From: a virus
Taxonomy: Duplodnaviria > Heunggongvirae > Uroviricota > Caudoviricetes
Reading direction: 5' to 3' (one strand)
Length of the DNA: 64,000 nt
Virus record (IMG/VR): IMGVR_UViG_3300018050_002226
The translations under genes were made by a program, and so were the position numbers. Below the pieces are notes generated by a model. The model saw only the letters and a program-made list of their open reading frames with translations, did not search any database and was not told the DNA's origin. Within the stretch, counting starts at the first letter, position 1; every line of letters begins with the position of its first letter. Positions 11,226 to 57,401 of the stretch are shown piece after piece.

Positions 11226-11825
11226 TCAATATGGATAATCATACCCGAACATTTCAAGATAATCTTTTGCCACATATTTTATATGTTCAATCATATCTTT
11301 TGTATAAAACTCTTTTTCTGCGTCACTGAAAAAAGTACCATTCATTCTTTTTTTACATAAATCATATAAAGCACCTGATTGACATATTTTTGAGTTGTAA
11401 ACGAAAGGAATTTTTATATAATCAGTCCACAGTTGCTCAACTCTAATCGGATAATCAGGTTTTCTATCTTGGAACATGATAAAACCCAAATCAAAGTTTC
11501 GTTCTGACTTTTCATGAAAAAAATTTCTGAAATTTTTGACAGTGAATTCATCTTTATTTGTTAATCTGTACTTGAATTCTGATACAAGTTTTGTGAAAGG
11601 ATTTCTTATGGTACAGATGAATTTGTAGTTATCGTGTCCTGTAAATAAATCCATAGCGTGATTATGACTCAAAAATTTTTCTCTCAAATCACTACCACCA
11701 GTGCTTTTAGTAACAAAATCAAAATGATTGAAAATAAAAGAAGCATGTAACGAACCAGTTTTAGGTGGCATCCACAAAAAGGCTTTGTTTTTTTCTGAAA
11801 TATTTACAGTATAGTTGTTTTTCAT
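11226..11825 (-). CDS. carbohydrate-type sulfotransferase-like protein (paralog of 22159..22758)
   Basis: 5'-PSB-like PPKTGS and 3'-PB-like RNPFTKLVSEF motifs. Confidence 0.6.
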   Translation of the reverse strand: MKNNYTVNISEKNKAFLWMPPKTGSLHASFIFNHFDFVTKSTGGSDLREKFLSHNHAMDLFTGHDNYKFICTIRNPFTKLVSEFKYRLTNKDEFTVKNFRNFFHEKSERNFDLGFIMFQDRKPDYPIRVEQLWTDYIKIPFVYNSKICQSGALYDLCKKRMNGTFFSDAEKEFYTKDMIEHIKYVAKDYLEMFGYDYPY

Positions 11826-28349: not shown

Positions 28350-28422
28350 TTGCATGGGTCAGAATCGAACTGACGACCTCCAGGTTATGAGCCTGGCGAG
28401 CTACCGCTGCTACTACCATGCG
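28350..28422 (-). tRNA. tRNA-fMet: tRNA-Met (anticodon CAT), initiator-like (C1.A72 mismatch)
   Basis: 73-nt cloverleaf built by hand: acceptor CGCATGG/CCATGCA, U8, D-loop GG, anticodon loop CUCAUAA, T-loop TTCGATT; CCA not encoded. Confidence 0.85.
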
Positions 28423-31703: not shown

Positions 31704-31727
31704 TAAAAAAAGGGGTTTTTAAACCCC
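31704..31727 (-). terminator. terminator hairpin GGGGTTTTTAAACCCC + T-run overlapping stop of methyltransferase gene
   Basis: seen in sequence. Confidence 0.45.
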
Positions 31728-32582
31728 TTCTTCAAAATCTAATTTAGATTGTTTCTTTTTATCGATAAATTGTTGAACTCTCTTTTTAGCAATTTCACAA
31801 TAGTTCGGACTGAGTTCAATACCTACCCAGTTTCTTCCTGATATTACTGCCGCAACTGGAGTTGTACCAGAACCACAGAAAGGGTCTAAAACGACGTCAT
31901 TTTTGTAAGTGAGTATCTTCATAGCTTTCATTGGAATGTCCAAGGAAAAGGTTGCTTTGGTCATTTGTTTAGTGTCTGCAAAATATGTCCACTGTCCATA
32001 AACCAAATCCATAAACTCTTTCTTCTGTTCTTCAGTATAGAGAGTTTTTTTCTTTTTCGTTCCATCCTCTTGTTCAATCTCATCAATCACCCCAACCCAC
32101 TCGGGTTCTCCCTTAACAATCTTAATATGTTTAGACTTGTAAGCCAAGATAACACACTCTTTCGGATTGTAGATGTAAGGTGCAGAAGGAGACATCCATG
32201 AACCCCAAGCCGTTGTCTTACTTCTATGTGGAGAATCTTCATCTAAATCCACAATACCATAAAATTTAAAACCAATTCTTTGCATAATCTGCCAAAGTTC
32301 AGAGGCAATAAAAACTCTACCTCCTTTATCCTGTCGATTGATTTCATAAGGAACATTAAGAGCAATTCTACCATCCGCCTTCAGAACTCTATAAGCCTCG
32401 GTGAGCCATTTCTTTGAAAAGTCTTTGTAGTCCTCTATGTTCATATCATCATCAAATGAATCATATTCAATACCCACTCCATAGGGTGGTGAAGTAACAA
32501 TAAGGTCAATAGAGTTTTCAGGCATTTTAGCCATCTCAATTATACAATCACCATTTATTATATTTCCTAAAAAATTTTCCAT
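31719..32582 (-). CDS. DNA methyltransferase, beta-class N6A/N4C (SPPY)
   Basis: DLIVTSPPYGVG (motif IV) precedes VLDPFCGSGTT (motif I). Confidence 0.85.
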   Translation of the reverse strand: MENFLGNIINGDCIIEMAKMPENSIDLIVTSPPYGVGIEYDSFDDDMNIEDYKDFSKKWLTEAYRVLKADGRIALNVPYEINRQDKGGRVFIASELWQIMQRIGFKFYGIVDLDEDSPHRSKTTAWGSWMSPSAPYIYNPKECVILAYKSKHIKIVKGEPEWVGVIDEIEQEDGTKKKKTLYTEEQKKEFMDLVYGQWTYFADTKQMTKATFSLDIPMKAMKILTYKNDVVLDPFCGSGTTPVAAVISGRNWVGIELSPNYCEIAKKRVQQFIDKKKQSKLDFEEGV

Positions 32583-35899: not shown

Positions 35900-37642
35900 T
35901 TAATCAATTCTCATAACCACAAAGGTTTGGTCTTGTACTGTAACTTCATCAGAATTTCCGTCATAAGAATTAATAAAATGAGCTTCACCATCCACATCAA
36001 TCGCTTCCTCAATTAATGATTCAACGTCTATAAAATCCGCCCAATCTAAACCATAGTTACTCAAAAAATATTCAGGGTCACTTACCGCGTCTTCCACCAT
36101 CTCATCTATTCTTTCTTCAATCAGTTCACTTGGAAAATCTCCTTGAGGGTCATCTTTTATTTCTTGAATTTCGTCCTCCCAATCCACAATCATATCTTGT
36201 AATTCCTCTATTTTTTCCTCAGTGCCCTCTAATTCTTCCAAACTTTCAATTGAGTCTTCAGCTTGTTTTATTTTTCTTTCTAATAAACTTATATTATCAT
36301 CTTGTTTTTTTGATAGTTCCCTTTGTGAATCATCTAAGAACGCATCTGGATTATCCCAAATGTCTTGATAAAAATAATCTCTAGCGGTGTCCTCAATTTT
36401 ATCCTTGTCCAAATGACCTTTCGCAAACCCATGATTGAATGCATCCACACCCATATCATCTATTTGTTGTCTCAAAGCATCTTCAGCGCTCTCTCTAGTT
36501 TCATCTAAAGTTCCAACAGCATATCTTCTTCCTTCCAAATCCGCACTTTCTGTAACTTCAAATTCAGTCATTTCGTAATGTTCTCCTGTTGGTACAATAT
36601 TATAAACATCAATTTTTGAAACTAACTCATCTCTTTCATCTTCTAAATCACTTATTGTGTCTAAAAGGTCTGTTCTTACTTCATCAGATGTGTCGTATTC
36701 TGTGTTCAACCTTTCAATTTCATCATTAATTCTCTGAATTTCAATTCTGTCTGCATTGGTTAAGACTTTAATATCACTTGTATCAACCAACCAATCGAGA
36801 AGTGCATGAGCTTTCAACCCTTCCTCAGGACAATCGGGTCCTAAATCCCATTCTCCCTCCGCTCTTCTTTCTTCGGCGTCCTCGTACCTTTGTCTTTGAA
36901 TTCTTTGGATTTCCAATCGTCTCTGTCTTTCCTTCTCTTCTTTTTTTCTTTTTTCATCCTCAAACTTTTGAATTTGTTCGGGATATTGATTTCTGAGGTA
37001 TTCTTCAATTTGTCCCAAAATTTTATCAAGTTCTTCGGAACCAAGTATCCATCCCTTAGAGAAAGAGTTGTCTCGAGCGTCCCACCAAGATTTCTCTTTA
37101 TCAAATTTATAAAGGAGGGCAACTTTATAGAAAGGGTCATCTGTTTTTAACTTTTTATCAATAAAATAAAAAAGTTTTCCATCACTATTGTATTTGTTGA
37201 AGTTTGCATCACTATCAGTTGTGCTGGTACACCATTTAGTTCCAGCACCATAATAACAAGATGATTTATGATTAAGTGGATTTACAATGTAAAATCTATC
37301 ATCTTGGAAAACTAAATTTCCACCCTCAGTCTCTGTATAATTTCTTTTCAGCTTGTCTCGATACTTTTTAATCTCTTGGATTAACTCATCCAATGACTTA
37401 TAACGATTAATGTCTGTTTGAGGTAAATTTGATGAAATGTTCTCGAAAATATTTAAATATTCATTGAGTTGTAAAATTTCTTTTTCAAAGGAAATTCCGT
37501 CCAAAACTCGTCCTGACCAATCTAAAAATTTTGGTTTAATCAAATCAATCATTCTTTTAAGCTGTTCACCGGTAAACTTGTTAGCATATTTGAAAGCAAA
37601 CTCATCAACTCTCGACTCTTTTAAAATTTGAAAAAATTTCAC
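35900..37642 (-). CDS. large protein with conserved CYYGAGTKWCTS domain and long acidic coiled-coil C-terminus (possible internal virion protein)
   Basis: ORF track; domain shared with 53915..55246. Confidence 0.55.
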   Translation of the reverse strand: MKFFQILKESRVDEFAFKYANKFTGEQLKRMIDLIKPKFLDWSGRVLDGISFEKEILQLNEYLNIFENISSNLPQTDINRYKSLDELIQEIKKYRDKLKRNYTETEGGNLVFQDDRFYIVNPLNHKSSCYYGAGTKWCTSTTDSDANFNKYNSDGKLFYFIDKKLKTDDPFYKVALLYKFDKEKSWWDARDNSFSKGWILGSEELDKILGQIEEYLRNQYPEQIQKFEDEKRKKEEKERQRRLEIQRIQRQRYEDAEERRAEGEWDLGPDCPEEGLKAHALLDWLVDTSDIKVLTNADRIEIQRINDEIERLNTEYDTSDEVRTDLLDTISDLEDERDELVSKIDVYNIVPTGEHYEMTEFEVTESADLEGRRYAVGTLDETRESAEDALRQQIDDMGVDAFNHGFAKGHLDKDKIEDTARDYFYQDIWDNPDAFLDDSQRELSKKQDDNISLLERKIKQAEDSIESLEELEGTEEKIEELQDMIVDWEDEIQEIKDDPQGDFPSELIEERIDEMVEDAVSDPEYFLSNYGLDWADFIDVESLIEEAIDVDGEAHFINSYDGNSDEVTVQDQTFVVMRID

Positions 37643-37962: not shown

Positions 37963-38976
37963 ATGAGTATTAATGATAATCTAAACAGAATACTTGATGA
38001 CTTCCTAAATAAGGAACAAGATGATGTTATATCTTATTTCGGAGATTTAGAAACTTTTTTTGATGTTCTCAAATCAAGAGGTCTTTACACAAAATTAGAC
38101 ATAGAAAGTTACGATTCTGAAGGTTGGCAAAACGATTATCTCTTGTGGTTATACGAAAATGATAAACCAAGATATTATTTTTGGGTTGGAAGATTTTTGG
38201 GAGATGTTGAAATTGACCCAAAAACGAGAAAAGCTTATTGGATTGGTGATAGGGAAGATTTAGCGGACCTTTTTTGTGGTGGTCACAGAAATGACGTATC
38301 ACAAGATACTATAAGAAAAATTCTCTCGGACGACGGAGACTGGTATGACAGTTATTGGGATACAACTGACGATTTATACAGAGACGTAATTGAGGAATTG
38401 AATTCAGAAAATATTGAACGTTTGAAAGAATACATCATCGAAAATCTCAAGGATAAACAACTTTCCCCCGAAACAGAAGAAATGGAACTAATTGCTACAG
38501 AACAAGGTCATAATGATTATTGGGAAATTAATTCAGAAGTTGTATCAAGAATAATTGACGATGAAGAATCTATGAATTCATTATTGGATGATGAACTATC
38601 TGACCTGAAATCAGAGCTATATAGTATACACTCAAATGCTTACAATTCAGCTTATGAAACTACAATTTACGATGAAATTTGGTCAGAGTTGAATGATTAT
38701 TTTGATGGACAAGGTGAATGGTTTTCCAAACCACATCCTTTCAAAGAAAATACGATGGTTCAGAAATTCAAATTACCGATAAGAGATTTAGAAGGGGTTG
38801 TGAACGAATATTTATATAATAATAAAGGTTTTTATAGAGGTACTTTGGAATATCAAGGAGCTTTACTGACCATAATCAGAGAAGACCATGATTGTCTCTC
38901 GGTTAGTATTCCTGACTATCCAAATTATTCCACGGTTGATAAAAACATAAATTTGTATTTCAGAGATTATATTTGA
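37963..38976 (+). CDS. hypothetical acidic protein
   Basis: ORF track. Confidence 0.5.
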   Translation: MSINDNLNRILDDFLNKEQDDVISYFGDLETFFDVLKSRGLYTKLDIESYDSEGWQNDYLLWLYENDKPRYYFWVGRFLGDVEIDPKTRKAYWIGDREDLADLFCGGHRNDVSQDTIRKILSDDGDWYDSYWDTTDDLYRDVIEELNSENIERLKEYIIENLKDKQLSPETEEMELIATEQGHNDYWEINSEVVSRIIDDEESMNSLLDDELSDLKSELYSIHSNAYNSAYETTIYDEIWSELNDYFDGQGEWFSKPHPFKENTMVQKFKLPIRDLEGVVNEYLYNNKGFYRGTLEYQGALLTIIREDHDCLSVSIPDYPNYSTVDKNINLYFRDYI

Positions 38977-39746
38977 TGAAAAATTATTTGAAAGAAATAT
39001 CGAGGAGCCCTTCCAAAACCCCACCGAAGTACATAGGTAACTTACTATCTCAAATTAAATTATTTGAGGTCTATCCGAGAATATATGCCGTTGTTATTAA
39101 AGACAATAAATTGAGAGGGAGAGTGTTTATGAGGTATCAAGAGTTTTATGAATCTGACTCGGATACTTTCAGAGGGAAAGGTTTCAAGTGGACAGAGTTT
39201 GTAGATTATTACAAAAGAAAAACAAAGAATGACATCTTAACATATCATGAAGATTGGGCTGGATATAATATCCCTTGTGATTCAATTGAATCGTGTATGG
39301 CTCTAATCCCTGACATTAATTTTTACGACTTAATAATGTTCAGTATTGTTGATACAATCAAATCAAAGGTTGGAGGAGATAAGTTTTATCTTATTGGAAT
39401 TGACCAAGAAAATGGTGAGGACGCTTCTTTAATTCAACACGAACTCGCACACGGTCTGTGGTTTTCATCCCCCCAATATAAAGCAGAACAGACTATGAAT
39501 ATAGATGAACTTCCTGATTTTGTTGAGGAGCCTTTGAGAAACAAGATTGCCAAAATGGGTTATGGACCAAACGTGATAGATGATGAGATTCAAGCCTATT
39601 TATCTACAGGGATTGAAGCCCCTTTGACGAGTATAAAGGAAATAAAAAAATATGTAATAAAATTTAAAGACACATTTCAGAAGTATGCCTCCAAAATGTA
39701 TACAAAGAGCATACCTATTGATTGGAGAACTGACTTAAATGCCTAA
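38973..39746 (+). CDS. hypothetical protein with HELAH (HExxH) motif
   Basis: motif only. Confidence 0.45.
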   Translation: MMKNYLKEISRSPSKTPPKYIGNLLSQIKLFEVYPRIYAVVIKDNKLRGRVFMRYQEFYESDSDTFRGKGFKWTEFVDYYKRKTKNDILTYHEDWAGYNIPCDSIESCMALIPDINFYDLIMFSIVDTIKSKVGGDKFYLIGIDQENGEDASLIQHELAHGLWFSSPQYKAEQTMNIDELPDFVEEPLRNKIAKMGYGPNVIDDEIQAYLSTGIEAPLTSIKEIKKYVIKFKDTFQKYASKMYTKSIPIDWRTDLNA

Positions 39747-40593
39747 AATATTAAACATATTAACTTCTATTCTAACTGAAGCATCAAGGTTCAAAATGGA
39801 CCCTGAACTAAATTTCTACATTCAAGATTTAGCTGATAGATTGTGGAGTATGAGAGATAAAAAGTTTACAAGAAAAACTCTTGTTGACGGATTTCCATTT
39901 AAAACTTCTGACGGTGTTGATGGTTATGTGAAAGTAATAATCAACCCAAGACTTCCTTATTTGGGTTATATGGATACCAAACCAAAAGAATCAAGAGACC
40001 CAATGGATTTTGTAATGGAATTACAACCAAAAGAATATGTTTCGAGAAGGAACTTATACCTTACAATTTACCACGAAATGCTCCACGCAACAGACCCCAC
40101 TCAATCCACAAAGTTTAGCCCAAAATACAGCCTAACTTACGACGAGAAAAGTGATGAGAAGTATTGGGGTCATCCAATTGAATTCAGAGCAATTTCTAAT
40201 GAGTTTTTGGAGGGTTTAGAACTTGAGATGGATAGAAGAACCTTGATGTTAAAAAATCCTGAAAATAAAAAGTATTTGGTTCAAAGCTTGGATAACATTT
40301 TGAATTATTTTGCCAATGGTGAAAAACTTTCCAAACTTTCTTTGGATATTTTAAGGAGAGTTAATGATGAAGAGGTATTGGAAAACAGAATTTCCAAATC
40401 TATAAGTGATATTGCAACTGAAAATCCTGGTCTTTCGGATTTTATTTCCGCTAGAGAAGGTAATGAACCATATTATTTGACTTATGTGGAACTTATCAAA
40501 AATCACAACCCGAAAATTTGGCCGAGATTTTTGACCATGTTGTACAAATCAATTGAAGACACAAAAAATAAGATTAATATAAAAAGGGTTTAA
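39739..40593 (+). CDS. hypothetical protein with HEMLH (HExxH) motif
   Basis: motif only. Confidence 0.45.
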   Translation: MPKILNILTSILTEASRFKMDPELNFYIQDLADRLWSMRDKKFTRKTLVDGFPFKTSDGVDGYVKVIINPRLPYLGYMDTKPKESRDPMDFVMELQPKEYVSRRNLYLTIYHEMLHATDPTQSTKFSPKYSLTYDEKSDEKYWGHPIEFRAISNEFLEGLELEMDRRTLMLKNPENKKYLVQSLDNILNYFANGEKLSKLSLDILRRVNDEEVLENRISKSISDIATENPGLSDFISAREGNEPYYLTYVELIKNHNPKIWPRFLTMLYKSIEDTKNKINIKRV

Positions 40594-40611
40594 AAAAACC
40601 CTTTTTTTTTT
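40586..40611. terminator. bidirectional terminator GGGTTTAAAAAAACCC flanked by T10 / A-run between convergent genes
   Basis: seen in sequence. Confidence 0.5.
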
Positions 40612-43600
40612 ACTTAACTTTCATTTCAAGTTTTTCAAGTCTCTCCTCTTTTTCATCTAATAATAAAGACTGTTCTTTTATAGCTTGAAGACATAAAGCA
40701 ATAACTTCAGAGTATTTTACCATATAATGAGAATCTTTCTGATTCTTTTTGAATACAAGTTCAGGGAATATTTGTTGAATTTCTTGAGCGATAAATCCAA
40801 TGTCACTTACTTGAGGTCCGTGAGATTTGGTATCAATATTTTTCCACTCGAAAGATACACCTCTAAGTTTAAGAACTTTTGGTAAAACATTTTCAATCGA
40901 TTTAATGTTTTTCTTTACTCTATAATCCGAAGGTCCTGTTGCACCTTGAGCACCCTGAGCACCCTGAGGTCCCGTCCCACCTGCCGGACCTTGTGGTCCT
41001 GTAGGTCCTTTTGGACCTTGCGCACCTTGAGCTCCCGTTCCTCCTGGTGAACCTGTAGGTCCAAGTGGACCTTTTGCACCTTGTGAACCTTGAGCTCCTG
41101 TAGCTCCTGTAGGTCCTTGAGCTCCTTGACCACCCGCTGGTCCTTGAGCTCCTTGCGCACCTGTAATACCTGTTGCTCCAGCCGGTCCAACTGCACCTTG
41201 AGCTCCCTGACCACCTGTTCCACCTCCTCCCCCTTGAGCTCCTTGAGCACCTTGTCCACCAGCTGGTCCTTGTGCACCTTGAGCTCCACCTGGGCCTTGT
41301 GACCCTTGTGCTCCTTGACCACCCGCTGGTCCTTGAGCTCCTTGACCACCTTGAGGGCCTTGAGCTCCTTGAGCTCCTTGACCACCCGCAGGTCCTTGAG
41401 CTCCTTGACCACCTTGAGGACCTTGAGCTCCTTGTGCTCCCTGTCCTCCAGCCGGTCCCTGCGAACCTTGACCACCTTGTGGACCCTGAGCTCCTTGGGC
41501 ACCTTGACCTCCAGCTGGTCCTTGGGCACCTTGACCACCTGTTCCACCTATTAATCCTTGGGCGCCTTGTCCTCCAGTTGGTCCTTGTGAACCTTGTCCA
41601 CCTTGTGGACCCTGAGCTCCTTGGGCACCTTGACCTCCAGCTGGTCCTTGTGCACCTGTAGGTCCAAGGGGTCCTTTTTGACCTTGGGCACCTTGACCTC
41701 CACCAGGTCCCTGCGCACCTGTTGAACCTTGAGGCCCTTGAGCACCTTGTGCTCCTTGTCCTCCTGTTGGACCTTGAGCTCCTGTTGAACCTACAGGTCC
41801 TTGAGCACCTTGTGCTCCTTGACCTCCAGCGGCACCACCACCACCTTGGGCTCCTTGTCCACCTTGAGCTCCTTGGGTTCCTTGTCCACCTTGAGCCCCT
41901 TGACCACCTTGGGCTCCCTGTCCACCCTGTGAACCTTGAGTACCTTGACCTCCTTGAGCTCCTTGTCCACCTTGTGAACCTTGACCACCTTGAGCACCTT
42001 GAGCACCTTGAACACCACCCGGTCCTTGAGCTCCTGTTGAACCTTGAGGTCCTTGAGCACCTTGGGCTCCTTGTACACCGCCCGGTCCTTGAGCTCCTGT
42101 TGAACCTTGAGGTCCTTGAGCACCTTGGGCTCCCTGAGCACCGAGAGCTCCTTTAGCTCCAAAAGAACCCTGAGCACCTTGACCACCTTGGGCTCCTTGT
42201 CCTCCTTGAGCACCTTGACCACCTTGGGCTCCCTGTCCTCCTTGTGCACCCTGTCCACCTTGTCCGCCTTGGGCTCCTTGCCCTCCTTGAGCACCTTGAC
42301 CACCTTGGGCTCCTTGGGCTCCTTGTACACCGGTTGGACCTTGTGCCCCTGTGGGACCTTGAGGACCTTGACCACCTTGGGCTCCCTGTCCACCAGTAGG
42401 CCCTTGAGCACCTTGTGTACCTTGCGGTCCTTGTGTACCCTGAGCACCCTGTACACCAGCTGGACCCTGAGCACCAGTTAAACCCTGAGGACCTTGAGCA
42501 CCCTGTGCACCTGTCCCCCCTTGAGCACCTTGAGGTCCTTGAGCACCTTGTCCACCTTGAGCACCCTGTGTTCCTTGTCCACCTTGGGCACCTTGTCCCC
42601 CTACGGCACCCTGAGCACCTTGAGAACCCTGTACTCCTTTTGCACCTTGAGCACCTTGACCACCTTGAGCACCTTGACCACCTTGGGCTCCTTGGGCACC
42701 TTGTCCTCCTTGAGAACCCTGAGCTCCTTGTACCCCTTGAGCCCCTTGTCCTCCTTGAGCACCTTGACCACCCTGTGCACCCTGTCCTCCTTGAGAACCT
42801 TGAGCACCTACAGGTCCCTGTGAACCCTGACCACCTTGTGAACCTTGTCCACCTGTAGAACCCTGAGAACCTTGCCCTCCTTGAGCACCTTGTCCTCCTT
42901 GAGAACCTTGACCCCCCGTAAGACCCTGAGCACCTTGACCACCCTGTGCACCTTGACCACCCTGTGCACCTTGTCCTCCTTGGGCTCCTTGACCACCTTG
43001 GGCTCCTTGTGCTCCCTGACTTCCAGGTTGACCAATATCTCCTTGAGCTCCCTGTGCACCTTGCACTCCTTGCGCACCTTGTCCACCCTGTGCACCTTGT
43101 AGACCGGTTATTCCCTGAGAACCTTGAGCTCCTTGGGCACCCGTTCCTCCTTGAGAGCCTTGTCCCCCAACCGCGCCTTGTGCTCCCTGTGCTCCTTGTA
43201 CTCCTTGAGCACCTACCGCTCCTTGAGAACCTTGAGCTCCTTGTGACCCTTGGCCTCCTTGCGCACCTTGTCCTCCAATATTTCCCTGGGCACCTTGGTC
43301 TCCTTGAGCACCTTGTGCACCTTGTGAACCCTGAGCGAGTTTGTTTCCTAACCAACCTGTAGAATTAATTAATGGGCTTAGAGCATTATTACTTAATGAA
43401 TTTTCCAAGTAAATTGGAAAATCTGACCTTAATATATTTCCAGATGTGTGAATACTTAAATAAGCAGTACCTGCAGCATTATTATATGGTACAAATTTCA
43501 GAACCCCACCTTCCAATACCCAGTTCACAAATGTATCTGCACTACTTACAAGTTGCATTAAAGATAGTGAAGGAGCAACAATAATGTTTTCAGCAGTCCC

Positions 43601-43786
43601 ATTATTATCGCAATCTACAGAAGTTGTGGTTACATTAGTAAATGTTGCAGTGTCTTTTATACAAGGAGTATAAAGTGAAACCCCTTGATTAACATTACTA
43701 CTTACTGCGGTTAAAGATGCACAGAGTTCTCCACTCCATGAACCACCTCCTGTACCACCAACTACTTTATATATCTTACAAGCCAT
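40610..43786 (-). CDS. tail fibre/spike protein A: N-terminal domain, ~800-aa collagen-like G-X-Y tract, C-terminal intramolecular chaperone (peptidase S74-like) domain
   Basis: C-terminus [10 protein letters not shown]...LRGVSFEWK...[16 protein letters not shown] matches the endosialidase chaperone domain pattern. Confidence 0.8.
40931..43330. repeat. GXY-coding low-complexity repeat (collagen-like tract of fibre A)
   Basis: CCTTGAGCACC-type 9-bp periodicity. Confidence 0.8.
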
Positions 43787-43787
43787 C

Positions 43788-46700
43788 TTATGTTAATGTT
43801 TCAGTCAACTTATTTATCCTCTCATAAATAGAGTCAATACGTTTTTGATTTATTTTGAGATTTGCAAGTCCCAAACTAACAAGAGGTCCGTAGTGCATAC
43901 TTTTATAACCCTCATCATCTGTATCTACTACCTCAGGTATAATCTTCTCCACATCTTGAGCAATGAAACCGAAAGTAGTACCTGTGAAAGCTTCTTTGAA
44001 AACAATTGCTGGGTGTTCTTTGATTTTCCTGTGTTCTGTATCCCACTCAAATGATACACTTTCAATTGTTTTAATTTTTTTCTCAGGTTCTCTCAGCGGA
44101 ATAATATTATCCTTCAATCGGATGTCAGAAGATGGACCTTGAGCACCTTGTGCTCCCTGACCACCTGTTGGTCCCTGTGGACCTGTAGGACCTGTTGAAC
44201 CTCCAGCACCTTGAGCACCTTGAGCTCCCGTAGGTCCTTGTGGGCCAGTTGGTCCTGTTGCACCTGCTAATCCAGTCGCTCCGGGTTGACCCGAGGGTCC
44301 TACTGGTCCCGGAGCACCCGCGGTTCCACTTGCGGCACCTTGAGCACCCTGAGCGCCTTGGGGTCCTGTTGGACCAGGTCCTGACCCTTGTGAGCCCTGA
44401 GCTCCAGTAGGTCCTTGTGGTCCCGTACCACCTGGAGCACCTTGAGCACCTTGTGGACCGGGTCCCGCGCCTTGTGCTCCTGTGGCTCCACCTGGACCCG
44501 TAGCTCCTTGTGCACCTTGAGGACCGGGTCCTGAGCCTTGCGCCCCTGTATTTCCTGTTGGCCCTGTGGCTCCTTGTGCTCCTTGAGGACCAGGTCCTGA
44601 CCCTTGCGCACCTGTATTTCCTGTTGGCCCTGTGGCTCCTTGTGCTCCTTGAGGACCAGGTCCTGACCCTTGTGCTCCTGTATTTCCTGTGGGTCCTGGA
44701 GCACCTTGCGCTCCTTGGTTTGCTCCCTGAGAACCTTGGGCACCTTGAGCTCCTGTGGGTCCTGTTGCTCCTTGAGCTCCTGTGTTTGCACCCTGAGAAC
44801 CTTGAGCCCCTGTTGGCCCTGTTGGTCCTGTCGCACCCTGAGCACCTTGGTTCGCACCTTGAGAACCCTGAGCTCCCTGATTACCCTGAACACCTATGGC
44901 ACCTTGAGCTCCTGTGTTTGCACCCTGAGAACCTTGAGCACCTGTTGGCCCTGTTGGTCCTGTCGCACCTTGAGCACCTTGGTTCGCACCCTGCGAACCC
45001 TGTGCTCCTTGAGCTCCCGTATTTCCAGTTGCTCCCTGAGCACCTTGTGTTGAACTTGCTGAACCCTGAGCTCCTTGAGCTCCTGTTTTTCCTGTTGCAC
45101 CTTGAGCACCTGTTGTACCCCCTTGAGCTCCTGTGTTACCTTGAGCTCCCTGTGGACCCGTGGCTCCTTGTGCACCTGTATTTCCTCCTTGTGCTCCCTG
45201 AGAGCCTTGTGCACCTGTTTTTCCTGTCGCACCCTGAGCACCTGTATTAGCTCCTTGGGTTCCTTGAGCTCCCTGAGCACCTGTGGGTCCTGTGGCTCCT
45301 TGTGCTCCAGTGTTAGCACCTTGTGTACCTTGAGCTCCTTGAGCACCTGTAGGTCCTGTCGCACCCTGAGACCCTTGAGTTGCGCTAGCTGCTCCTTGAA
45401 ACCCTTGGGCACCTTGAGCTCCAGTACTCCCTTGAGCACCTGTTGTCGCACCCTGAGCTCCTGTATTTCCTTGAGCTCCTGTTGGTCCTTGAGCACCTGT
45501 TGGTCCTTGAACTCCACCTTTAGCCCCTTGCGAACCTTGAGCACCCGTATTACCTGTCGCACCTTGTGCACCCGCGTTTGCACCCTGAGTACCTTGAGCA
45601 CCTTGAGCACCTGTAGGTCCTGTAGGTCCTTGAGCTCCTTGATTTGCTCCCTGAGTACCTTGAGCACCCTGAGCACCTGTAGGTCCTGTAGCTCCTTGTG
45701 CACCTGTATTTGCACCTTGAGTACCTTGAGCACCTTGAGCACCTGTGGGTCCTGTAGCACCTTGCGCTCCCGTTGTTCCACCTTGAGCACCTTGTGAACC
45801 TTGAGCACCAGAAACTCCAAGGTCTCCTTGAGCACCTGTAGTTCCACCTTGCGCACCTTGACTCCCGACGGCTCCTTGAGCACCTTGGGCACCTTGTGAA
45901 CCCTGAACCCCACTTTGAGCACCTTGTGAACCTTGGGCACCCTGCTTTCCTGTTGCACCTTGTGCACCTGTCGGAGTACCTTGAGCTCCCTGAGCACCCT
46001 GCTTTCCTTGAGCACCTGTATTTCCTTGCGCCCCAACAGGACTACCTTGAGCACCTATGTTTCCTTGAGCACCTTGAGCACCTGTATTTCCTTGAGCTCC
46101 TGTGTTTGCTCCTTGTGCCCCCTGAGAGCCTTGAGCACCTTGAGCACCTGTATTACCTTGTGCACCGGTGTTCGCACCTTGTGCTCCTTGAGAGCCCTGA
46201 GCACCCTGAGCTCCTGTGTTACCTTGGGCACCTGTGGTTGCGCCTTGAGCACCTTGAGAACCCTGAGCACCTGTATTTCCTGTTGCACCTTGAGCACCTT
46301 GTTTAGCTCCTTGAGCTCCCTGAGCACCTTGAGCTCCTTGAGCTCCTTGTTTACCTTGTGCTCCAACTGTTGCACCTTGGTCCCCTTGAGCCCCCTGTGC
46401 TCCTTGATTTCCAACGGCTCCTTGAGCTCCTTGTGTTCCTCCTTGAGCTCCCTGAGTTCCTTGGGCACCTTGAGCACCTGTGGCACCAGTAGGACCTGAA
46501 ACCGCACTGGCTGTTCCCTTAGCACCCGTCGCACCTTGAGCTCCTGTATCACCCTGAGCACCTGTGTTTGCTCCTTGAGTACCTTGAGCACCTTGTTTAC
46601 CTGTAGCACCTTGTGCTCCTTGAGCACCTTGAGCTCCCGCAATACCTGCTGTAGGTCCAGTCCAAACTCCCGAAACATTAATCATTTGAGTTGGACCCAC

Positions 46701-46907
46701 ATATAATCCTGAATTATTTATAGTTAATCCTGAAGTTCTTATACCTTGAGGACCAATCATTAATCCTTGCGTGAATGTTCCCGCAGAAAAATTTAAAGTT
46801 CTTGCCGTTACAAAAAAAGCAACTTGATTGCTTCCATCATCCCAATAAAACCAAGGTCTACTATCGTAAGCATTACCCTGAGGAAATATCTTTAGTTCGT
46901 TCGGCAT
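43788..46907 (-). CDS. tail fibre/spike protein B: collagen-like tract ~840 aa + C-terminal S74-like chaperone domain
   Basis: C-terminus [13 protein letters not shown]...SVSFEWD...[16 protein letters not shown]. Confidence 0.8.
44133..46658. repeat. GXY-coding repeat (fibre B)
   Basis: as above. Confidence 0.8.
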
Positions 46908-49900
46908 CAGCTAATACTTTTTTCTAATTCATCAAGTTTATTATTAATATCTTCTATAAATAATTGATGTTCTTTAATTCCTTCAACTATCACGGCATTT
47001 AATTTTGTATAATCTATAAAATAATACCCGTCAGGTCCCATTTTAACCACTTGTGGGAAATGTAACCTTACGTTCTGTGCAATAAGACCTATTTGGTGAA
47101 GTTTTTTATTTTTTTCAAATATGTCATATTTTTCTTTACCTATATTTTCATTCCAATCATACTCAACAGTCTCGATTTCTATAATTTTATCCATTACCCC
47201 CTCTAAGGTCTCTATACTTTGTTTTAAATTTACGTCCGAATACGCACAGGTTTGATTGAAGGTTCCGTTACCACATGTTGCATTCAGAGTATAACACTGA
47301 TTAGCAGCGGTTTTTTCGTATTGATAAAGGTTACCGAAATCACAGCTTGAATTCGTACAGTTGGTATAATTGAAATATTTGTTGTCTGATGGTGAATATG
47401 TCCCACTTTGTGTGTAGATTGGACCTACAGTAAAAGTTTGTATACATACTGAAGTACAACTCGCACCCCTTCCTCCTCTCAAAATTGGATAATAGGCATA
47501 ACATGTTACACTTCCTGGTCCCGTTGCACCCTGAGCACCTTGTGAACCTGTAGCCCCCGTTGGACCTTGTGGTCCTGTAGGACCAGTCACACCAGTAGCT
47601 CCTTGAGCACCTTGACTACCTGTTGGACCAGTAGGACCAGTTCCTCCAGCGGGACCCTGAGGTCCTGTAGGACCTTGTGCACCTTGTCCCCCCTGTGGTC
47701 CAAGGGGACCGTTAGAACCTGGAGCCCCTGTGGCACCTACAGGACCTATTGGTCCTTTTGTTCCTGTTGCCCCTTGAGCACCTTGACCTCCTGTTGGTCC
47801 AGTTGGTCCAGTGGGACCAGTTGCACCTGTAGCACCCGTTGCACCTGCGGCACCTTGTGGTCCTGTAGGACCTTGTGGACCTGTTGCACCCGTTGCTCCT
47901 TTGGTTCCAGCAGCACCTTGTGGTCCTGTAGGACCTTGTGGTCCTGTCGCTCCTCCCGCACCGATAGGTCCAGTTGCACCTTGTGGTCCTGTAGGACCTG
48001 TTGGACCTACATTACCTGTGGCACCGATAGGTCCAGTTGCACCTTGTGGACCTGTTGGTCCTGTTGGACCTGTGTTTCCTGTTGGACCAAGAGCTCCGGT
48101 TGCACCTCCAGCACCTTGAGGGCCAATAGACCCTTTAGCACCTTGAGCTCCAGAATGACCGGTGGCACCTTGCGGACCAGTTGGTCCGGTTGGACCTGTG
48201 GCACCTTGAGCTCCCGGGTGTCCCGTTGCTCCTTGAAATCCTGTAGGTCCTGCGGGTCCTAATGCACCTTGTGCACCAGGATGACCCGTGGCACCTTGAG
48301 CACCTTGTCCACCTGTTGGTCCGAGAGCTCCTTGAGCGCCAGGATGTCCAGTTGCTCCTTGAGCTCCTTGTGGACCCGTAGGTCCAATGTTTCCTGTCGG
48401 TCCAAACGCACCTTGGGCACCTGTTGACCCTTGAGCACCTGCTGTTCCTGTGGCCCCTTGTGGTCCTACGGCACCTACATTACCAGTAGCACCTGCTGGA
48501 CCTGTTGGTCCAGTTGCCCCTTGTGGTCCTAAAGCCCCTTGAGCACCTGTACTACCTTGAGGTCCGGCTGGACCTGTTGCTCCTTGTGCACCTGGATGAC
48601 CCGTTCCTCCCTGAGCACCTTGTCCTCCTGTTGGTCCGAGTGCTCCTTGAGCGCCAGGATGTCCAGTTGCTCCCTGAGCTCCTTGTACACCTGTGGGTCC
48701 AGTGTTTCCTTGTGGTCCAATGGTTCCTTGAGCACCAGTTGCACCTTGTGCACCTTCGTTTCCTGTTGCCCCCTGTGGACCTACCGCCCCAACACTTCCT
48801 GTTGCACCCTGTGAACCGGTTGCTCCTTGATTTCCGAATGGTCCAGCAAGACCCTGAGCACCTGTACTTCCCTGTGAACCTACAGGACCTACGGAGCCTT
48901 GTGCACCAGGATGTCCTGTCCCACCTTGTGCCCCTTGTGGACCTGTTGGTCCTATTGCTCCTTGTGCACCAGGGTGTCCTGTCGCGCCTTGAGCTCCCTG
49001 TGGACCTGTTGGTCCTAAAGCGCCTTGTGCACCAGGATGTCCTGTCCCACCTTGTGCCCCTTGTGGACCTGTCGGTCCTGTCGCTCCTTGTGGGCCAACC
49101 GCTCCTTGAGCACCAACTTTTCCCTGAATACCTTGAATACCTTGAGCACCTTGTGGTCCCAAATTACCTTGAGCCCCTGTGGCTCCTTGCGCACCAGTAT
49201 CTCCAGTGGCCCCTTGTGGACCAACAGCACCCTGTGCACCTGTATCTCCTTGAGCTCCTGTCGGGCCTGCAGCTCCCTGTGCTCCGGTGTTACCTTGTGC
49301 ACCCGTTGGGCCTTGAGCACCTTGTGGACCTGTGGCACCTTGTGCCCCTGTGAGTCCTTGAGCACCTGTGTTTCCTTGAGCTCCTGTCGGACCTGTGGCA
49401 CCTTGTGCTCCAGTATGCCCTTGGGCGCCTGTGTTTCCTTGGGCTCCTGTTGGGCCAGTGGCACCTTGGGCACCTGTGTTTCCTTGGGCACCTGTGTTTC
49501 CTTGTGCTCCAGTCGGACCTGTGGCACCTTGTGGACCAACATTTCCCTGTGCACCCGTACTTCCTTGTGAACCAACAGGTCCAACAGCACCTTGTGCACC
49601 AGTGTGTCCCTGTGCACCTGTATTTCCTTGAGCACCAATTGGTCCTTGTGCACCTTGTGGTCCCACTGGTCCTTGTGCACCTGTATCTCCAAAAGGCCCT
49701 TTAACACCTTGAGCCCCTTGAGGTCCAACATTCCCCTGAGCACCTGTATTACCCTGAGCCCCTTGAGTACCTTGGGCACCTTGAGGTCCTATACTACCTT
49801 GGGCACCTTGTCCACCCTGTGCACCGTTTGTACCAATGGAACCTTGAGCCCCCGTATTACCCTGAGCCCCTTGGGTTCCTTGTGTACCTTGATTTCCTTT

Positions 49901-50236
49901 TGGTCCCTGCGCTCCCGCAATACCAGCTTGAGAACCAATCCAATTTGCGGTGTCGTTGATTACTTGAGTTGAACCAACAGTAAGATTATTTATTACGTTT
50001 ATTGAAGTTGCAGTAAGTGTTCCTAAATAAGCATTCAGAGTTAAAATGTTCGGTGAAGTACTAGCAGAAAAATTTATAACCTGACCCCAAATTGCAGGTC
50101 CACCTCCAACGGTGTAATCATAAATCCTCATTCTAAGTGGTGCATCAGAAGCCTCGTTAATAAAATCAATAAAAGGTATTCTATCAACTGTTCTTGAAAT
50201 ACTATTACTCGGTCTTATAAAAATGTTTTCACCCAT
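46907..50236 (-). CDS. tail fibre/spike protein C: collagen-like tract ~800 aa, Cys-rich domain, C-terminal S74-like chaperone domain
   Basis: C-terminus [13 protein letters not shown]...VEYDWNE...[16 protein letters not shown]. Confidence 0.8.
47513..49936. repeat. GXY-coding repeat (fibre C)
   Basis: as above. Confidence 0.8.
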
Positions 50237-50341
50237 CTATTTCTGTATACTTGAATAAATATTTTAAATTGGATTTATCTTGTCATTATTTTTGAATATA
50301 ATTCCGAGACATAAAAAATCTCAATTAATAAATATAACGAA

Positions 50342-51037
50342 ATGAATAATGAAGGACAGAATCATCAGATAAAACTATCTGTGGTAAACTTATTCTCTGA
50401 ATTTATTTTAAACAAAATTAATATTACCTCCGAAACGGTCATTGAAGTAGTGGATTGTCAAAATTTTTTTGTTGTCAAAGGTAAAACTTCAAGTACTGAG
50501 GTTTTGGACTTGAATAAAATAAAAGAAGAGTTTCATGAAAAGTTTTTAAAAATTTCTGAAAATTTTAAAATTGGAAACACAATCGATTTAATCGAGTATG
50601 GTTTTGAATTGGATTCAAAAGACAAAATGGCTTTCGAGTTTTTTAACACGGTTGATTTATCATCTAGTAAGTGTAACATCCCGAACACATCTTTAACCTT
50701 TAAATCGGAATTTCCGTTTGGGCACTCATTCAAAATGGGAAAAAATCTTTTTTATTACGCAAAACACATTGCATATAATCTACAATCAAAATATACTTGG
50801 GACAGATTAATTATTGAAATAAGTTATAAAAATAATGAAGAAAATTTGAAGTTGTATTTGGACTCTTGTGATGTATCAAATGAAGAACTTAAATCTTCAA
50901 TATTGGATTGTTTTACTTTCAACTATGGGAGTTTCGAGAAAAAAATTGTTGACTCCGATTGGTGGGAACCAATAATTGACAAAGAGAAAGAATTTTATTT
51001 TGTAAAAGAACTTAACAAAGATTTAATCCTCTTTTAA
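50342..51037 (+). CDS. hypothetical protein
   Basis: ORF track. Confidence 0.5.
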   Translation: MNNEGQNHQIKLSVVNLFSEFILNKINITSETVIEVVDCQNFFVVKGKTSSTEVLDLNKIKEEFHEKFLKISENFKIGNTIDLIEYGFELDSKDKMAFEFFNTVDLSSSKCNIPNTSLTFKSEFPFGHSFKMGKNLFYYAKHIAYNLQSKYTWDRLIIEISYKNNEENLKLYLDSCDVSNEELKSSILDCFTFNYGSFEKKIVDSDWWEPIIDKEKEFYFVKELNKDLILF

Positions 51038-51318
51038 ATTAAGTGTTTTTTAACTAATTCCAAAGCCTCGGTCAACTCATTATAGTTTCTTTCTGGCGCG
51101 TAGAGATAAGACTTATGATTTTTTTCATCCCCTTCAATTATAAGAAGTGCGGGTATCATATCATTACCAGTAATTTTGGAGTATGTATCGTATTCTTGTT
51201 CATGCTCGTGAATGTCCCTATCAACGAAATCGATTTTTTCATCTTCCAACAACTTTTTGAAGTCCTGACAAAAAGGACATCCTTTCATGGTATAGACAAT
51301 GACATTAACTTTTTTCAT
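51034..51318 (-). CDS. glutaredoxin-like protein (CPFC)
   Basis: VIVYTMKGCPFCQDFKKLL. Confidence 0.75.
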   Translation of the reverse strand: MKKVNVIVYTMKGCPFCQDFKKLLEDEKIDFVDRDIHEHEQEYDTYSKITGNDMIPALLIIEGDEKNHKSYLYAPERNYNELTEALELVKKHLI

Positions 51319-51323
51319 AGAAA

Positions 51324-51647
51324 TTAGTTTAATAGAGTGAGAAGTTCAGTTGGCATCATTACGCCAGGTCTTGAAAAAACTTCTTTTCCCTCTTTGAAGA
51401 TTTTTATAGTTGGAACACTTCTGATTCCGAGTTCGGATACTACGAACTCTTTGTCAGTGTCGATATCGTACTTGTAAATTTTGTATTTTGGTTGGTTTGT
51501 TGATTCTTTTATCAAGGATTCATTAACTTGTTCCAAGTTTCTCAACATTATTTTACAAGGACCACACCATGTTGCATATAAATCCAAAACGAAGTTTTCA
51601 CCATTGTTAATTTTTTGTTTTAGTTCTTCAGTTGTCAGTTGTATCAT
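51324..51647 (-). CDS. thioredoxin (WCGPC), start at internal Met MIQLTT
   Basis: FVLDLYATWCGPCKIM; 107 aa. Confidence 0.75.
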   Translation of the reverse strand: MIQLTTEELKQKINNGENFVLDLYATWCGPCKIMLRNLEQVNESLIKESTNQPKYKIYKYDIDTDKEFVVSELGIRSVPTIKIFKEGKEVFSRPGVMMPTELLTLLN

Positions 51648-55280: not shown

Positions 55281-56120
55281 CTAATAATTTAATATCAAAA
55301 GCTCTTCTCCTAAATTTTGTTTTACACCTTTTTTTGCAGAAGCAGCTTTAGCAAATTGTTTTTTCTCCCATCTATATCTACTTTCAGGAAACCAATCGTG
55401 TAATAAAGAAAAATCGTAATATGATAAAGAAAATTTTCCTTGTACACAACTCAATGTTTGAGCAAGTCTTTCATGGTCATTTCTATCGAAATCGTGATTT
55501 GAATAGTAATTTTCAGTCTTCCAATAGGGAGGGTCTAAATAAATGTAAGTTGAAGGAGAATCGTATTTTTCAATCACCTGTTGGAAATCAAGATTTTCAA
55601 CATGGGTAATTTTACTGAAGTGGTCAACCCATTTTGGATTGGAAAGTTTGTCTCTGAAAGCCAAGTATTTAGAACGGTATTTCCCTTTCAAATCAATGAA
55701 ACTTGAAGTTTCAGGTTTACTACCACTGAAGACTTGTGTCACAACATAAACATACTTTGCAGCAATCGTATAATCAGGATAATTTATTGTGAGCCCAGAA
55801 GAAAATAGTTCTGTTTGAAACTCCTGAAATCTAATCTTATAAATTTGGTCGGTAGGTGAAACCCCAAATTCTTGCACAGGAATATTATCTAAGTGTCTTT
55901 GGAGTTCAGAAGGATTTTGAACACATCTGAATAAGTTGTAATTCAAAGGGTTGAAATCATTGTAAACAACTCTTTTAAGATTTTTGAACTTTGACAGGTC
56001 CATATTGAAGTAACACCAAAACATACCTCCAAATGTTTCGACATATGTTTCCATGTCTTCAAGATAATAAGGTACAATCCACTTACCTATTTTGGATTTA
56101 CCACCAATATAACTTAACAT
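55281..56120 (-). CDS. dam: DNA adenine methyltransferase, T4 Dam-like (D12 class, DPPY)
   Basis: N-terminal YIGGKSK, FGG motif I, IYLDPPY motif IV. Confidence 0.85.
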   Translation of the reverse strand: MLSYIGGKSKIGKWIVPYYLEDMETYVETFGGMFWCYFNMDLSKFKNLKRVVYNDFNPLNYNLFRCVQNPSELQRHLDNIPVQEFGVSPTDQIYKIRFQEFQTELFSSGLTINYPDYTIAAKYVYVVTQVFSGSKPETSSFIDLKGKYRSKYLAFRDKLSNPKWVDHFSKITHVENLDFQQVIEKYDSPSTYIYLDPPYWKTENYYSNHDFDRNDHERLAQTLSCVQGKFSLSYYDFSLLHDWFPESRYRWEKKQFAKAASAKKGVKQNLGEELLILNY

Positions 56121-56157
56121 GAATAAAATATAACACAAAAAAAATCAAAAAGCAAAT

Positions 56158-56483: not shown

Positions 56484-57401
56484 TTAATTAGTTCTTTCGA
56501 ACCTTACTTGTAATTTCACATACATATCCCCCCCACTATATCCTTTACCTCTTAATCTTAGTGGTTTGGATGTATCAAAGGATTTGGGTGCTGGTATTTG
56601 AAGTTCCCCATCAGGATGAGGAATTTTATATTTGTCGGAATTTATCCCATTTAAATCCAAATATAAAGTGTAAACCAAATCACTATTAATCTTTTCAAAA
56701 CCGTCTTTTGGTTCGAGTTCAATTTGTAAAATCAAATCTCCATAGTCTCCACTTCTGAAATCTCCCACGTCAGGAATTTTAACAAACTGACCATTATCAA
56801 CCCCAACAGGTAGATTTATTGAAATTTCATTTTTAGATGATTTTGTTCCTCTACCTTGACAATCATAACATCTTGAAATCAGATTGTATCCCTTCCCCTG
56901 ACAAGACGGGCATGCGGTTCTTATTTGTTGAACCATAAAACCTGTTCCAAAAGTTTTTATTATGAACCCACTACCCTCACAGGTGTTACAAATTCTTTGG
57001 TCACCCCCTGTACCGTTACATGTGACACAGTGAGTGTCTCTAAAATACATTATATTTTTTTGGGACCCTCGATATGACTCAATTGGAGATACACTGACTT
57101 TTACAATCTTATCGGGTGCTTGCTTTCTTCTTGGTTGGTTGGGACCTCTGTTCCCAAACATTTGGGAAAAAATTGCTTCAAAAGGTGTACCACCATAGGG
57201 ATTGTTTTTTTGATTGTTGTAGTTTGACCTTTTTTGTTGGTCCCCAAGAACCTCATAAGCCTCATTAATTTCTTTAAATTTTTCAGCCCCTTCGGGATTT
57301 AAATCGGGATGATATCTTTTGGACAGATTTCTGAAACTTTTTTTGATTTCATCATCAGTCGCATTCTCTTCAACTTCTAATATTTTATAGTAATCTTTCA
57401 T
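56484..57401 (-). CDS. dnaJ: DnaJ (type I Hsp40: J domain, G/F region, 4x CxxCxGxG zinc finger, C-terminal domain)
   Basis: DYYKILEV...RYHPDLNP; CVTCNGTG, CNTCEGSG, CPSCQGKG, CYDCQGRG. Confidence 0.85.
   Translation of the reverse strand: MKDYYKILEVEENATDDEIKKSFRNLSKRYHPDLNPEGAEKFKEINEAYEVLGDQQKRSNYNNQKNNPYGGTPFEAIFSQMFGNRGPNQPRRKQAPDKIVKVSVSPIESYRGSQKNIMYFRDTHCVTCNGTGGDQRICNTCEGSGFIIKTFGTGFMVQQIRTACPSCQGKGYNLISRCYDCQGRGTKSSKNEISINLPVGVDNGQFVKIPDVGDFRSGDYGDLILQIELEPKDGFEKINSDLVYTLYLDLNGINSDKYKIPHPDGELQIPAPKSFDTSKPLRLRGKGYSGGDMYVKLQVRFERTN

Follow-up and report, generated by a model that had tools for sequence, protein, structure and literature searches.

Candidate chains of a natural phage ABC collagen: tracts of 98 to ~270 triplets with matched unit changes and a strictly periodic single-chain break

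Three neighbouring genes, C, B and A, in the window (the whole 64,000-nucleotide stretch of viral DNA analysed here) may encode the chains of one heterotrimeric collagen-like fibre of ~230 nm, set in register by S74 domains that are then self-removed. Judged from the sequences, the chance that this reading is correct is about even. The wider proposal, that the chains belong to one natural phage ABC collagen spanning 98 to ~270 triplets, with matched unit changes and a strictly periodic break in a single chain, could equally fall either way. A single fibre of three chains is suggested by the match of the tracts to ~1 triplet, by complementary charges at equal heights and by the presence of a single distal domain. 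On the same grounds, with one distal domain per trio, the three separate paralogous fibres proposed in the earlier note on this DNA are probably wrong.

Genes C, B and A most likely form one operon of an uncultured freshwater jumbo bacteriophage (Table 1). They are minus-strand ORFs of 1109, 1039 and 1058 aa, co-oriented as that note had recorded, and the 1-nt gap given there lies at 43787, where the B/A junction reads TAA g ATG and gene A then starts. The overlap at 46907, given there as ATGA, is instead TGATG, in which the gene C stop and the gene B start share 1 nt. This start/stop codon coupling at both junctions was counted in favour of the heterotrimer. Orthologues of gene C begin with MGKNILIVP or MAKNILIVP. 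The promoter-like site upstream of gene C was found by its match to the consensus alone, and such sites in the region as a whole showed no excess over shuffled sequence. Many ORFs in other frames or on the opposite strand of the tracts were rejected as genes and attributed to the repeat.

Table 1. Features of the three-gene cassette and its borders
Feature	Position	Strand	Basis
Gene C, chain 1 of the trio, 1109 aa	46907..50236	-	ORF listing, Pfam
Gene B, chain 2, 1039 aa	43788..46907	-	ORF listing, Pfam
Gene A, chain 3, 1058 aa	40610..43786	-	ORF listing, Pfam
Promoter-like site TTGAGA-18-TATATT, upstream of gene C	50295..50324	-	match to consensus alone
Palindromic terminator-like hairpin, 11-bp stem, A-run/T-run, between gene A and convergent genes	40581..40606	.	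sequence
Chain C N-domain, aa 1-104, type NC, predicted all-beta, ending W-x-G	49925..50236	-	
Chain B N-domain, aa 1-87, type NB, paralogue of that of chain C	46647..46907	-	
Chain A N-domain, aa 66-152, type NA (ENIIxxP ... W-x-G)	43331..43591	-	
Chain A N-terminal extension, clade-specific, aa 1-65, 4 Cys	43592..43786	-	closest relatives only (MACRVYKVV etc.)
Chain C collagen tract, 268 unbroken G-X-Y triplets (aa 105-908), 21-aa (63-bp) super-repeat	47513..49924	-	
Chain B collagen tract, 839 aa, 265 triplets, 35 breaks, 22-aa (66-bp) period	44130..46646	-	
Chain A collagen tract, 267 unbroken triplets (aa 153-953), 21-aa super-repeat	40928..43330	-	
Chain C Cys-rich domain, aa 909-997 (89 aa), 8 Cys, between tract and S74	47246..47512	-	
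Chain C S74 domain, Ser1000 codon 47237-47239, Lys1005 codon 47222-47224	46910..47245	-	
Chain B S74 domain, Ser927 codon 44127-44129, directly 3' of last triplet	43791..44129	-	
Chain A S74 domain	40613..40927	-	Pfam, alignment to solved S74 domains

The contig also encodes an endolysin, a sigma-70-like factor and T4 endoV; with the overlapping genes and PHROG matches, these three led to rejection of a giant-virus origin, for which MORN, LRR and DnaJ genes had been considered. A phage origin is supported by the same three genes, by contigs of up to 321 kb and by a neighbouring gene whose product resembles a PA5oct virion protein. The sole link to tails is the similarity of the S74 domains to long-tail-fibre distal subunits. 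Against cultured phages, megablast of the flank gave no match and tblastn gave distant S74 matches only, the cassette being present in no cultured phage. An IMG/VR scan for close relatives with the C-terminus of chain C as query found none. The scan of bacterial genomes yielded no host; its close matches were short contigs binned into unrelated MAGs.

Pfam Collagen (PF01391) scored above its curated cut-off in all three chains. Uninterrupted tracts of ~270 triplets had been described for each; this holds for chains A (267) and C (268) but fails for chain B, whose 35 breaks follow a strict 22-residue period. Chain B consists of 36 triplet blocks with a unit of 7 triplets + 1 residue, or 6 triplets + 4 residues, and amounts to 268 triplet equivalents if each break is taken as the nearest whole triplet. 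Its orthologues retain a 22/43/44-aa period. The composition was as first described, with GPT among the dominating triplets and Pro-Pro almost absent (no GPP); Gln and Thr occupy Y, and charged residues make up ~1%. KGD/KGE motifs, usually abundant in viral collagens, do not occur within any one of the three window chains. Glycosylation or another factor may be needed for stability of the collagen helix. The repeat DNA of the three tracts comes to 7.33 kb, in agreement with the ~7.3 kb estimated earlier, and has periods of 9/18/27 bp and stronger ones of 63/66 bp. Exact DNA repeats extend to at most 62 bp inside one gene and at most 25 bp between genes.

At the C-termini, Peptidase_S74 (PF13884) was matched with 59.2 bits in A (aa 953-1011), 45.1 in B (aa 927-994) and 36.3 in C (aa 1000-1065), against a curated cut-off of 22 bits, and the S74-type assignment of the earlier note therefore stands. 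A test for the Ser-Lys dyad had been set beforehand: the motif S-D-x-x-x-K (S-x4-K) at the domain start is invariant in A, B and C and kept in 111/111 chains of the 37 trios described below. The window domains align onto the solved 6f45 and 7dc3, with the dyad on SDRRIKK of 6f45. From this motif, we infer that each S74 domain cleaves itself at the conserved Ser. The net charges of the three S74 types showed no complementarity.

A Cys-rich domain between tract and chaperone in fibre C, as reported before, was confirmed. Among the relatives it is found on exactly one chain per trio and has 6-10 Cys, and in the other two chains the catalytic Ser comes immediately after the last triplet; in chain A of the window, Ser953 is the final Y residue of the tract. 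Since the Ser directly follows the last triplet in two chains, only one chain would retain a distal domain after cleavage. An AF2 model of the Cys-rich and S74 region (pLDDT 41) was too poor for a fold search.

The N-terminal domains had been called distinct, but they are paralogous: those of B and C align with E = 9e-9, A aligns weakly, and all three have a proline close to the N-terminal end (Pro9 in chain C) as well as W-x-G directly before the tract. No Pfam or PHROG matches were obtained in the three chains outside the collagen and S74 parts, and no match of the N-domain to known baseplate or tail attachment domains. With the chain C N-domain alone as query, the sole match was itself, and the profile search returned only unnamed metagenome fragments. 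The AF2 model of this domain (pLDDT 59) was likewise too poor for a fold search.

For comparison, 37 distinct complete syntenic trios (111 chains) were assembled from metagenome contigs of uncultured freshwater jumbo phages; the genomes are related and counts from them non-independent. The variation in fibre length foreseen earlier is real, with tracts ranging from ~80 to >290 triplets between relatives. In one clade the N- and C-terminal modules are reshuffled, which fits recombination within the tracts and so bears out the repeats as a recombination substrate. No genome, reshuffled ones included, lacks any of the N-types or C-types or has one of them twice.

Triplet totals at the three gene positions are correlated with r = 0.976-0.977 across these related genomes. 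The within-trio spread has a median of 4%, compared with 43% when permuted, and 0/10,000 permutations reached the observed value. Across 16 non-overlapping genome pairs, the three genes also change length in parallel (r = 0.91-0.94), as in the examples -35/-37/-35 and -99/-98/-99. Divided by the average of A and C, B comes to 1.003 when triplets are counted and to 1.037 for residue span (p = 0.0017); on the sequences, the quantity matched is triplets, not residues. In triplet equivalents, where each break is scored as the nearest whole triplet, the window gives 268/268/267, relatives give 233/233/232, 195/195/194, 161/161/160, 142/142/141 and 98/99/98, and one distant group gives 128/128/127. 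Agreement within 2 triplets was found in 21/37 trios by this count, a result partly dependent on how the tract boundaries are defined, and in 3/37 by raw counts or residues/3. The well-matched trios span 98 to ~270 triplets. Nevertheless, about one third of trios are mismatched, by whole repeat units, which counts against the heterotrimer. Indels lie at equal heights in the three chains between the window and L027 (D 3.1 vs 17.7) and between L098 and L111 (8.7 vs 28.8), but their co-location was significant in only 4/11 genome pairs, which also counts against it.

Opposite charges are paired across the chains of the trios. Within 4 levels there are 55 cross-chain opposite-charge pairs against 16.7 +/- 4.0 expected (3.3-fold; 0/400 shifts as high), and acidic residues have a basic partner on another chain in 46/121 cases and on their own chain in 15/121. 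The pair offsets peak at +2 and -1, the K-G-D/E geometry divided between chains. Clusters involving all three chains number 11 against 2.0 expected (p ~0.001), and one of the 11 lies in the window (C:D226, B:K223 and A:K230). Like-charge pairs across chains were slightly below expectation, not significantly so, and Asn gave no signal in the same cross-chain test. The charged residues are sparse and sit mostly in the N-terminal 150 levels, an observation that counts against the heterotrimer.

Neither the 35 insertions of chain B nor the breaks of chains 1 and 3 fall at matching positions in another chain, so a heterotrimer would hold many single-chain defects. Compensation of a +1 break by a -1 break at the same height in another chain was rejected because 43-aa and 41-aa periods drift apart. 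Unequal-length breaks in different chains do occur in natural heterotrimeric collagens, and their structural consequences are not understood (PMC11923368).

In the proposed heterotrimer, the stop/start codon overlap would provide equimolar chains, and the three paralogous S74 domains would form a mixed trimer that takes a single copy of each chain and fixes the register. The triple helix would then zip up in the C- to N-terminal direction along 268 triplets, giving ~230 nm, after which each S74 domain is predicted to excise itself at its conserved Ser. The mature fibre would comprise a three-chain N-terminal beta domain for virion attachment, the rod and the single Cys-rich tip of chain C. The extra residue after every seventh triplet of chain B may loop out, making a single-chain break every ~6 nm, and fibre length would evolve by whole repeat units matched in all three genes.

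Precedent speaks against such a fibre. To our knowledge, every S74 domain described so far is a homotrimer encoded by a single gene, and no heterotrimeric collagen has been reported outside animals. Prokaryotic collagen-like proteins are described as homotrimers (PMC8968730). A homotrimer is what is normally expected of a phage fibre, an S74 domain or a prokaryotic collagen, and three separate ones (A3, B3 and C3), held to equal length from outside, for instance by a reach they have in common or by a dimension of the virion, are a possible alternative that we consider distinctly less probable. The chain-specific breaks would be harmless there, falling at the same place in all three chains; periodic breaks do occur in single-gene, presumably homotrimeric, collagens (P0022 and P0110), which counts against the heterotrimer, and the PHROG matches of the chains are to tail fibre families. 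Nevertheless, flexible fibres of ~230 nm have no obvious need for a match of ~1 in 268 triplets, and it is triplets that are matched, though physical length should track residues. Separate homotrimers also leave the cross-chain charge complementarity at equal heights and the co-located indels unexplained, and cleavage would leave two of them as plain rods with no distal domain.

In another arrangement, which we regard as unlikely, the three homotrimeric helices would run alongside one another in register and form a cable of nine chains, held N-terminally and with complementary surface charges paired between helices. Equal unit numbers would be needed here too, charges at equal height on different chains could be exploited, most of the charge pairs are near the N-terminal end, and the 7-triplet sequence period could present a repeating face. 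However, the +2/-1 offsets fit contacts within a helix, B3, measured in residues, would exceed A3 and C3 by ~4% unless its extra residues contribute no rise, two rods would still be tip-less, and no such cable is known for phage fibres. Far less probable still, indeed very improbable, is that the lengths match as a side effect of concerted evolution or of assembly artefacts, with no functional cause. Recent copying is possible in the distant group L167-L171, where the three tracts are near-identical, but in the main group gene conversion was rejected as the cause of equal lengths because orthologous tracts (similarity 0.42-0.69) are more alike than paralogues in the same genome (0.22-0.55), and chain B keeps its own 22-aa period. 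Short-read assemblies do break or collapse in these repeats, yet collapse would destroy matching rather than produce it, and exact repeats do not exceed 62 bp. An assembly artefact in the window cassette is unlikely: its 9627 bp are the same in independent assemblies, without any mismatch in JGI contig L004 and with a single one in ENA contig L001.

C1q A, B and C are encoded by three linked paralogous genes with collagen regions of equal length. In C1q and other heterotrimeric animal collagens (types IV and IX; the procollagen C-propeptide), a C-terminal non-collagen domain selects and registers the chains, as proposed here for the S74 domains, and heterotrimeric animal collagens likewise have unequal-length breaks in different chains. 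They are unrelated in sequence to the window chains, in which register would be set by a protease-chaperone that cleaves itself. C1q has a tract only about one third as long as that of the window, which also carries hardly any charge, is without Hyp-type stabilisation and is interrupted with strict periodicity in one chain alone. Prokaryotic and prophage collagen-like proteins (Scl1/2, BclA and EPclA) share with it G-X-Y tracts free of hydroxyproline, Thr/Gln-rich types included, and in them flanking domains drive trimerisation; they are described as homotrimers and are far shorter.

If the three chains do form one mixed helix, the view of prokaryotic and viral collagens as homotrimers would be overturned (PMC8968730), and the trio would offer a natural model for chain selection, register and unequal-length breaks. 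It would also show a virus tuning fibre length by quantised steps. The production of defined heterotrimeric collagens in E. coli is a standing difficulty (PMC11923368), for which the S74 domains could then supply a ready-made, self-removing registration module or tag.

Phage fibres and spikes with a C-terminal S74 domain (K1F endosialidase, T5 pb1, S16 gp37 6f45) and MYRF (7dc3) likewise have S-x4-K at the domain start and then a helical tail, with release expected after trimerisation. The window trio differs from this set in that three paralogous S74 types always occur together and that, in two chains, the domain sits directly on the collagen end. Collagen-like phage fibres with an S74 chaperone are already known; against the literature searched, what is new is the conserved trio with equal triplet count over a 3.4-fold range of length, no length-matched collagen trio being described there. 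Phages and polinton-like viruses also encode fibre proteins that combine collagen with S74 (PHROG 6320, 5073 and 8745; PMC12220804) in the same domain order, but from single genes, unlike the trio of the window. Many metagenomic proteins of 1500-1800 aa share this order, and the longest unbroken run among the best 120 matches is 196 triplets, compared with 267-268 in the window.

The interval 40610-50236 is occupied by three minus-strand ORFs transcribed in the order C, B, A, with a promoter-like site upstream of gene C and a palindromic terminator-like hairpin just beyond gene A. The G+C content of the cassette region is 46-57%, against about 33% in the remainder of the window. Tight coupling of the genes had been claimed in an earlier note on this DNA. 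The 1-nt gap between the B stop and the A start was found as described; C and B do overlap, one base being common to the C stop and the B start, but the junction is TGATG rather than ATGA. Further ORFs called inside the collagen tracts were dismissed as mechanical by-products of the repeat.

Features of the cassette and of the surrounding window
Feature	Coordinates	Strand	Description
Gene C	46907-50236	-	ORF, 1109 aa
Gene B	43788-46907	-	ORF, 1039 aa
Gene A	40610-43786	-	ORF, 1058 aa
231-aa gene	50342-51037	+	sole gene between gene C and glutaredoxin/thioredoxin pair
Glutaredoxin	51034-51318	-	just upstream of cassette
Thioredoxin	51324-51647	-	just upstream of cassette
Three-gene group	37963-40593	+	337, 257 and 284 aa; converging on cassette
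580-aa gene	35900-37642	-	kept beside cassette
Sugar genes	15969-19452; 1620-2318	-; +	UDP-galactopyranose mutase, two or three glycosyltransferases
tRNA-Met (CAT)	28349-28422	-	sole tRNA in window
UmuC-like Y-family polymerase	11822-13027	-	
DnaJ	56484-57401	-	full-length, with zinc-finger domain
Dam methylase	55281-56138	-	
N6/N4 methylase	31719-32582	-	

All three proteins matched Pfam Collagen and Peptidase_S74 above the curated cut-offs, and the expected Ser-Lys dyad was confirmed, S-D-x-x-x-K being invariant in A, B and C. Chain A can be aligned with two S74 domains of known structure, one from a long-tail-fibre distal subunit (6f45) and one from MYRF (7dc3). The predicted catalytic Ser lies at, or immediately after, the last triplet in A and B; in chain C an 89-aa domain with eight Cys sits between the collagen tract and S74. 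The G-X-Y tracts had been called uninterrupted, which is correct for A (267 triplets) and C (268) but not for B, whose 265 triplets carry 35 breaks with a strict 22-residue period. Autocorrelation and Tandem Repeats Finder gave a super-repeat of 21 aa/63 bp in A and C and of 22 aa/66 bp in B. Charged residues make up about 1% of the tracts and the Y position is mostly Gln and Thr; neither GPP nor K-G-D/E motifs occur in the three tracts. The N-domains, previously regarded as distinct, proved to be paralogous: all share W-x-G just ahead of the tract and a proline near the N-terminus (Pro9 in chain C numbering), and that of chain A bears an additional 65-aa extension.

A search with a C-type S74 profile gathered about 160 related loci, and every contig of sufficient length had the three genes in tandem, with synteny kept. 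Among the 37 distinct complete trios used for length statistics, triplet number ranges from about 80 to about 270 across genomes and is nearly equal inside each genome (r = 0.976-0.977 between gene positions; median within-trio spread 4%, compared with 43% when permuted). When related genomes are compared, all three genes change length by the same amount. Periodic breaks are always carried by chain 2, and the quantity matched is triplets, not residues. With each break taken as the nearest whole triplet, the window trio has 268/268/267 triplet equivalents, and these agree within 1 in 12 of the 37 trios and within 2 in 21; raw triplet counts or residues/3 agree within 2 in only three. In mismatched trios one gene is shorter by whole repeat units, and such trios look like collapse or deletion variants. 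Among near-identical strains (L169 vs L168; L032 vs L095; L038) a single gene is off by exactly one repeat unit of 34 or 13 triplets, which breaks the match, owing either to assembly collapse or to real population variation.

For pairing tests, positions in each chain were converted to axial levels, which allowed charged residues to be compared across chains. Opposite charges lay within 4 levels on different chains 55 times, against 16.7 +/- 4.0 expected (3.3-fold enrichment), and acidic residues had a basic partner on a different chain at three times the frequency seen within their own. The offsets, +2 and -1, are those usually seen in K-G-D/E contacts. Clusters of acid in one chain and base in both others numbered 11 against 2.0 expected, for example at level 226 of 804 in the window and 667 of 810 in the related locus L106. 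Like charges across chains were slightly, not significantly, below expectation, and Asn gave no signal in the same test. In two genome comparisons, window vs L027 and L098 vs L111, the three chains have their indels at matching levels; co-location is weak or absent in other genome pairs, whose near-perfect repeats allow more than one alignment.

Judged from sequence, the chances are about even that A, B and C form a single heterotrimer. Five observations are those expected of an A-B-C triple helix: the chains match triplet for triplet, charge pairs are split between chains, the genes are translationally coupled, each genome has every N-type and every C-type once even where these have been shuffled, and only one chain has a distal domain. 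The S74 domains would act as a self-removing registration module, and the proposed fibre would follow the same logic as C1q or type IX collagen. What speaks most against this reading is that each chain has its own breaks, at positions that differ from chain to chain, so chain B would loop out one residue per 7 triplets; animal heterotrimers also have breaks unequal between chains, and their structure is not understood (PMC11923368).

Equal lengths could also belong to three separate homotrimers, which we consider doubtful, or to a bundle of homotrimers, which seems less probable still. An artefact or concerted evolution is very improbable. Tracts of paralogues are less alike than those of orthologues, so gene conversion is not the cause of the length match in the main group, and exact repeats of at most 62 bp make assembly collapse unlikely in the window cassette. 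This 9627-bp cassette is fully identical in the JGI contig L004 and differs by 1 base in the ENA contig L001. No description of heterotrimeric collagen-like phage fibres was found in the literature searched, and the pay-off would be high if the heterotrimer were true.

A distant second family (L167-L171, IMG/VR; e.g. L168 8651-13725) also has three tandem collagen and S74 genes, with 35-aa N-termini, [SSIA] breaks, tracts near-identical to one another and matched lengths (128/128/127 triplet equivalents). In the L012-L014 clade, with about 80 triplets per chain, N- and C-terminal modules are recombined (NC-CB, NA-CC, NB-CA) and gene order is altered, one of each module type being retained. Some loci have globular insertions of 150-236 aa in the tract of one chain only, encoded by gene 1 or gene 3: mid-tract in gene 3 of L080 and L093 and after the first few N-terminal triplets in L010, L094 and L108. 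Most of these trios still match when the triplets of the interrupted tract are summed; gene 2 of L080 is about 14 triplets short.

The collagen and S74 architecture as such is already known, from PHROG tail-fibre families, thousands of metagenomic proteins (many of 1500-1800 aa) and polinton-like viruses. The longest unbroken run among the best 120 matches was 196 triplets. Periodic breaks after 7 triplets recur outside the cassette family: the unrelated single-gene collagen proteins P0022, P0110 and P0087 have a 23-residue period (7 triplets plus 2 residues) and end in a non-collagen C-terminal domain without assigned fold.

The source is an uncultured freshwater jumbo phage. This follows from occurrence of the same proteins on freshwater metagenome contigs from ENA and JGI, from genes on the same contig outside the window (Amidase_2 endolysin, sigma-70-like factor, T4 endoV), from IMG/VR contigs of relatives of up to 321 kb, and from the 580-aa neighbour, whose N-terminal part weakly resembles (24-29% identity) mass-spectrometry-verified virion proteins of jumbo phage PA5oct. 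Megablast of the flank and tblastn did not find the cassette in the cultured phages searched, and a scan of bacterial genomes did not find the host.

The glutaredoxin/thioredoxin arrangement is kept in every syntenic relative examined, and, as these genes adjoin the chain with the 8-Cys tip domain, their products may act in its disulfide chemistry. Helix formation by (Gly-Pro-Thr)n requires glycosylation (PMC11923368); together with the Thr-rich, almost uncharged tracts and the glycosyltransferase genes, this makes fibre glycosylation by phage-encoded enzymes a lead. The three genes converging on the cassette are kept in all relatives, and their products are candidate fibre adaptors or assembly factors. 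None matched Pfam, and the sole PHROG match was a marginal one of the 284-aa protein to phrog_10499 (unknown function; E 8.7e-4). The UmuC-like polymerase, DnaJ and the two methylases are accessory genes unusual in phage.
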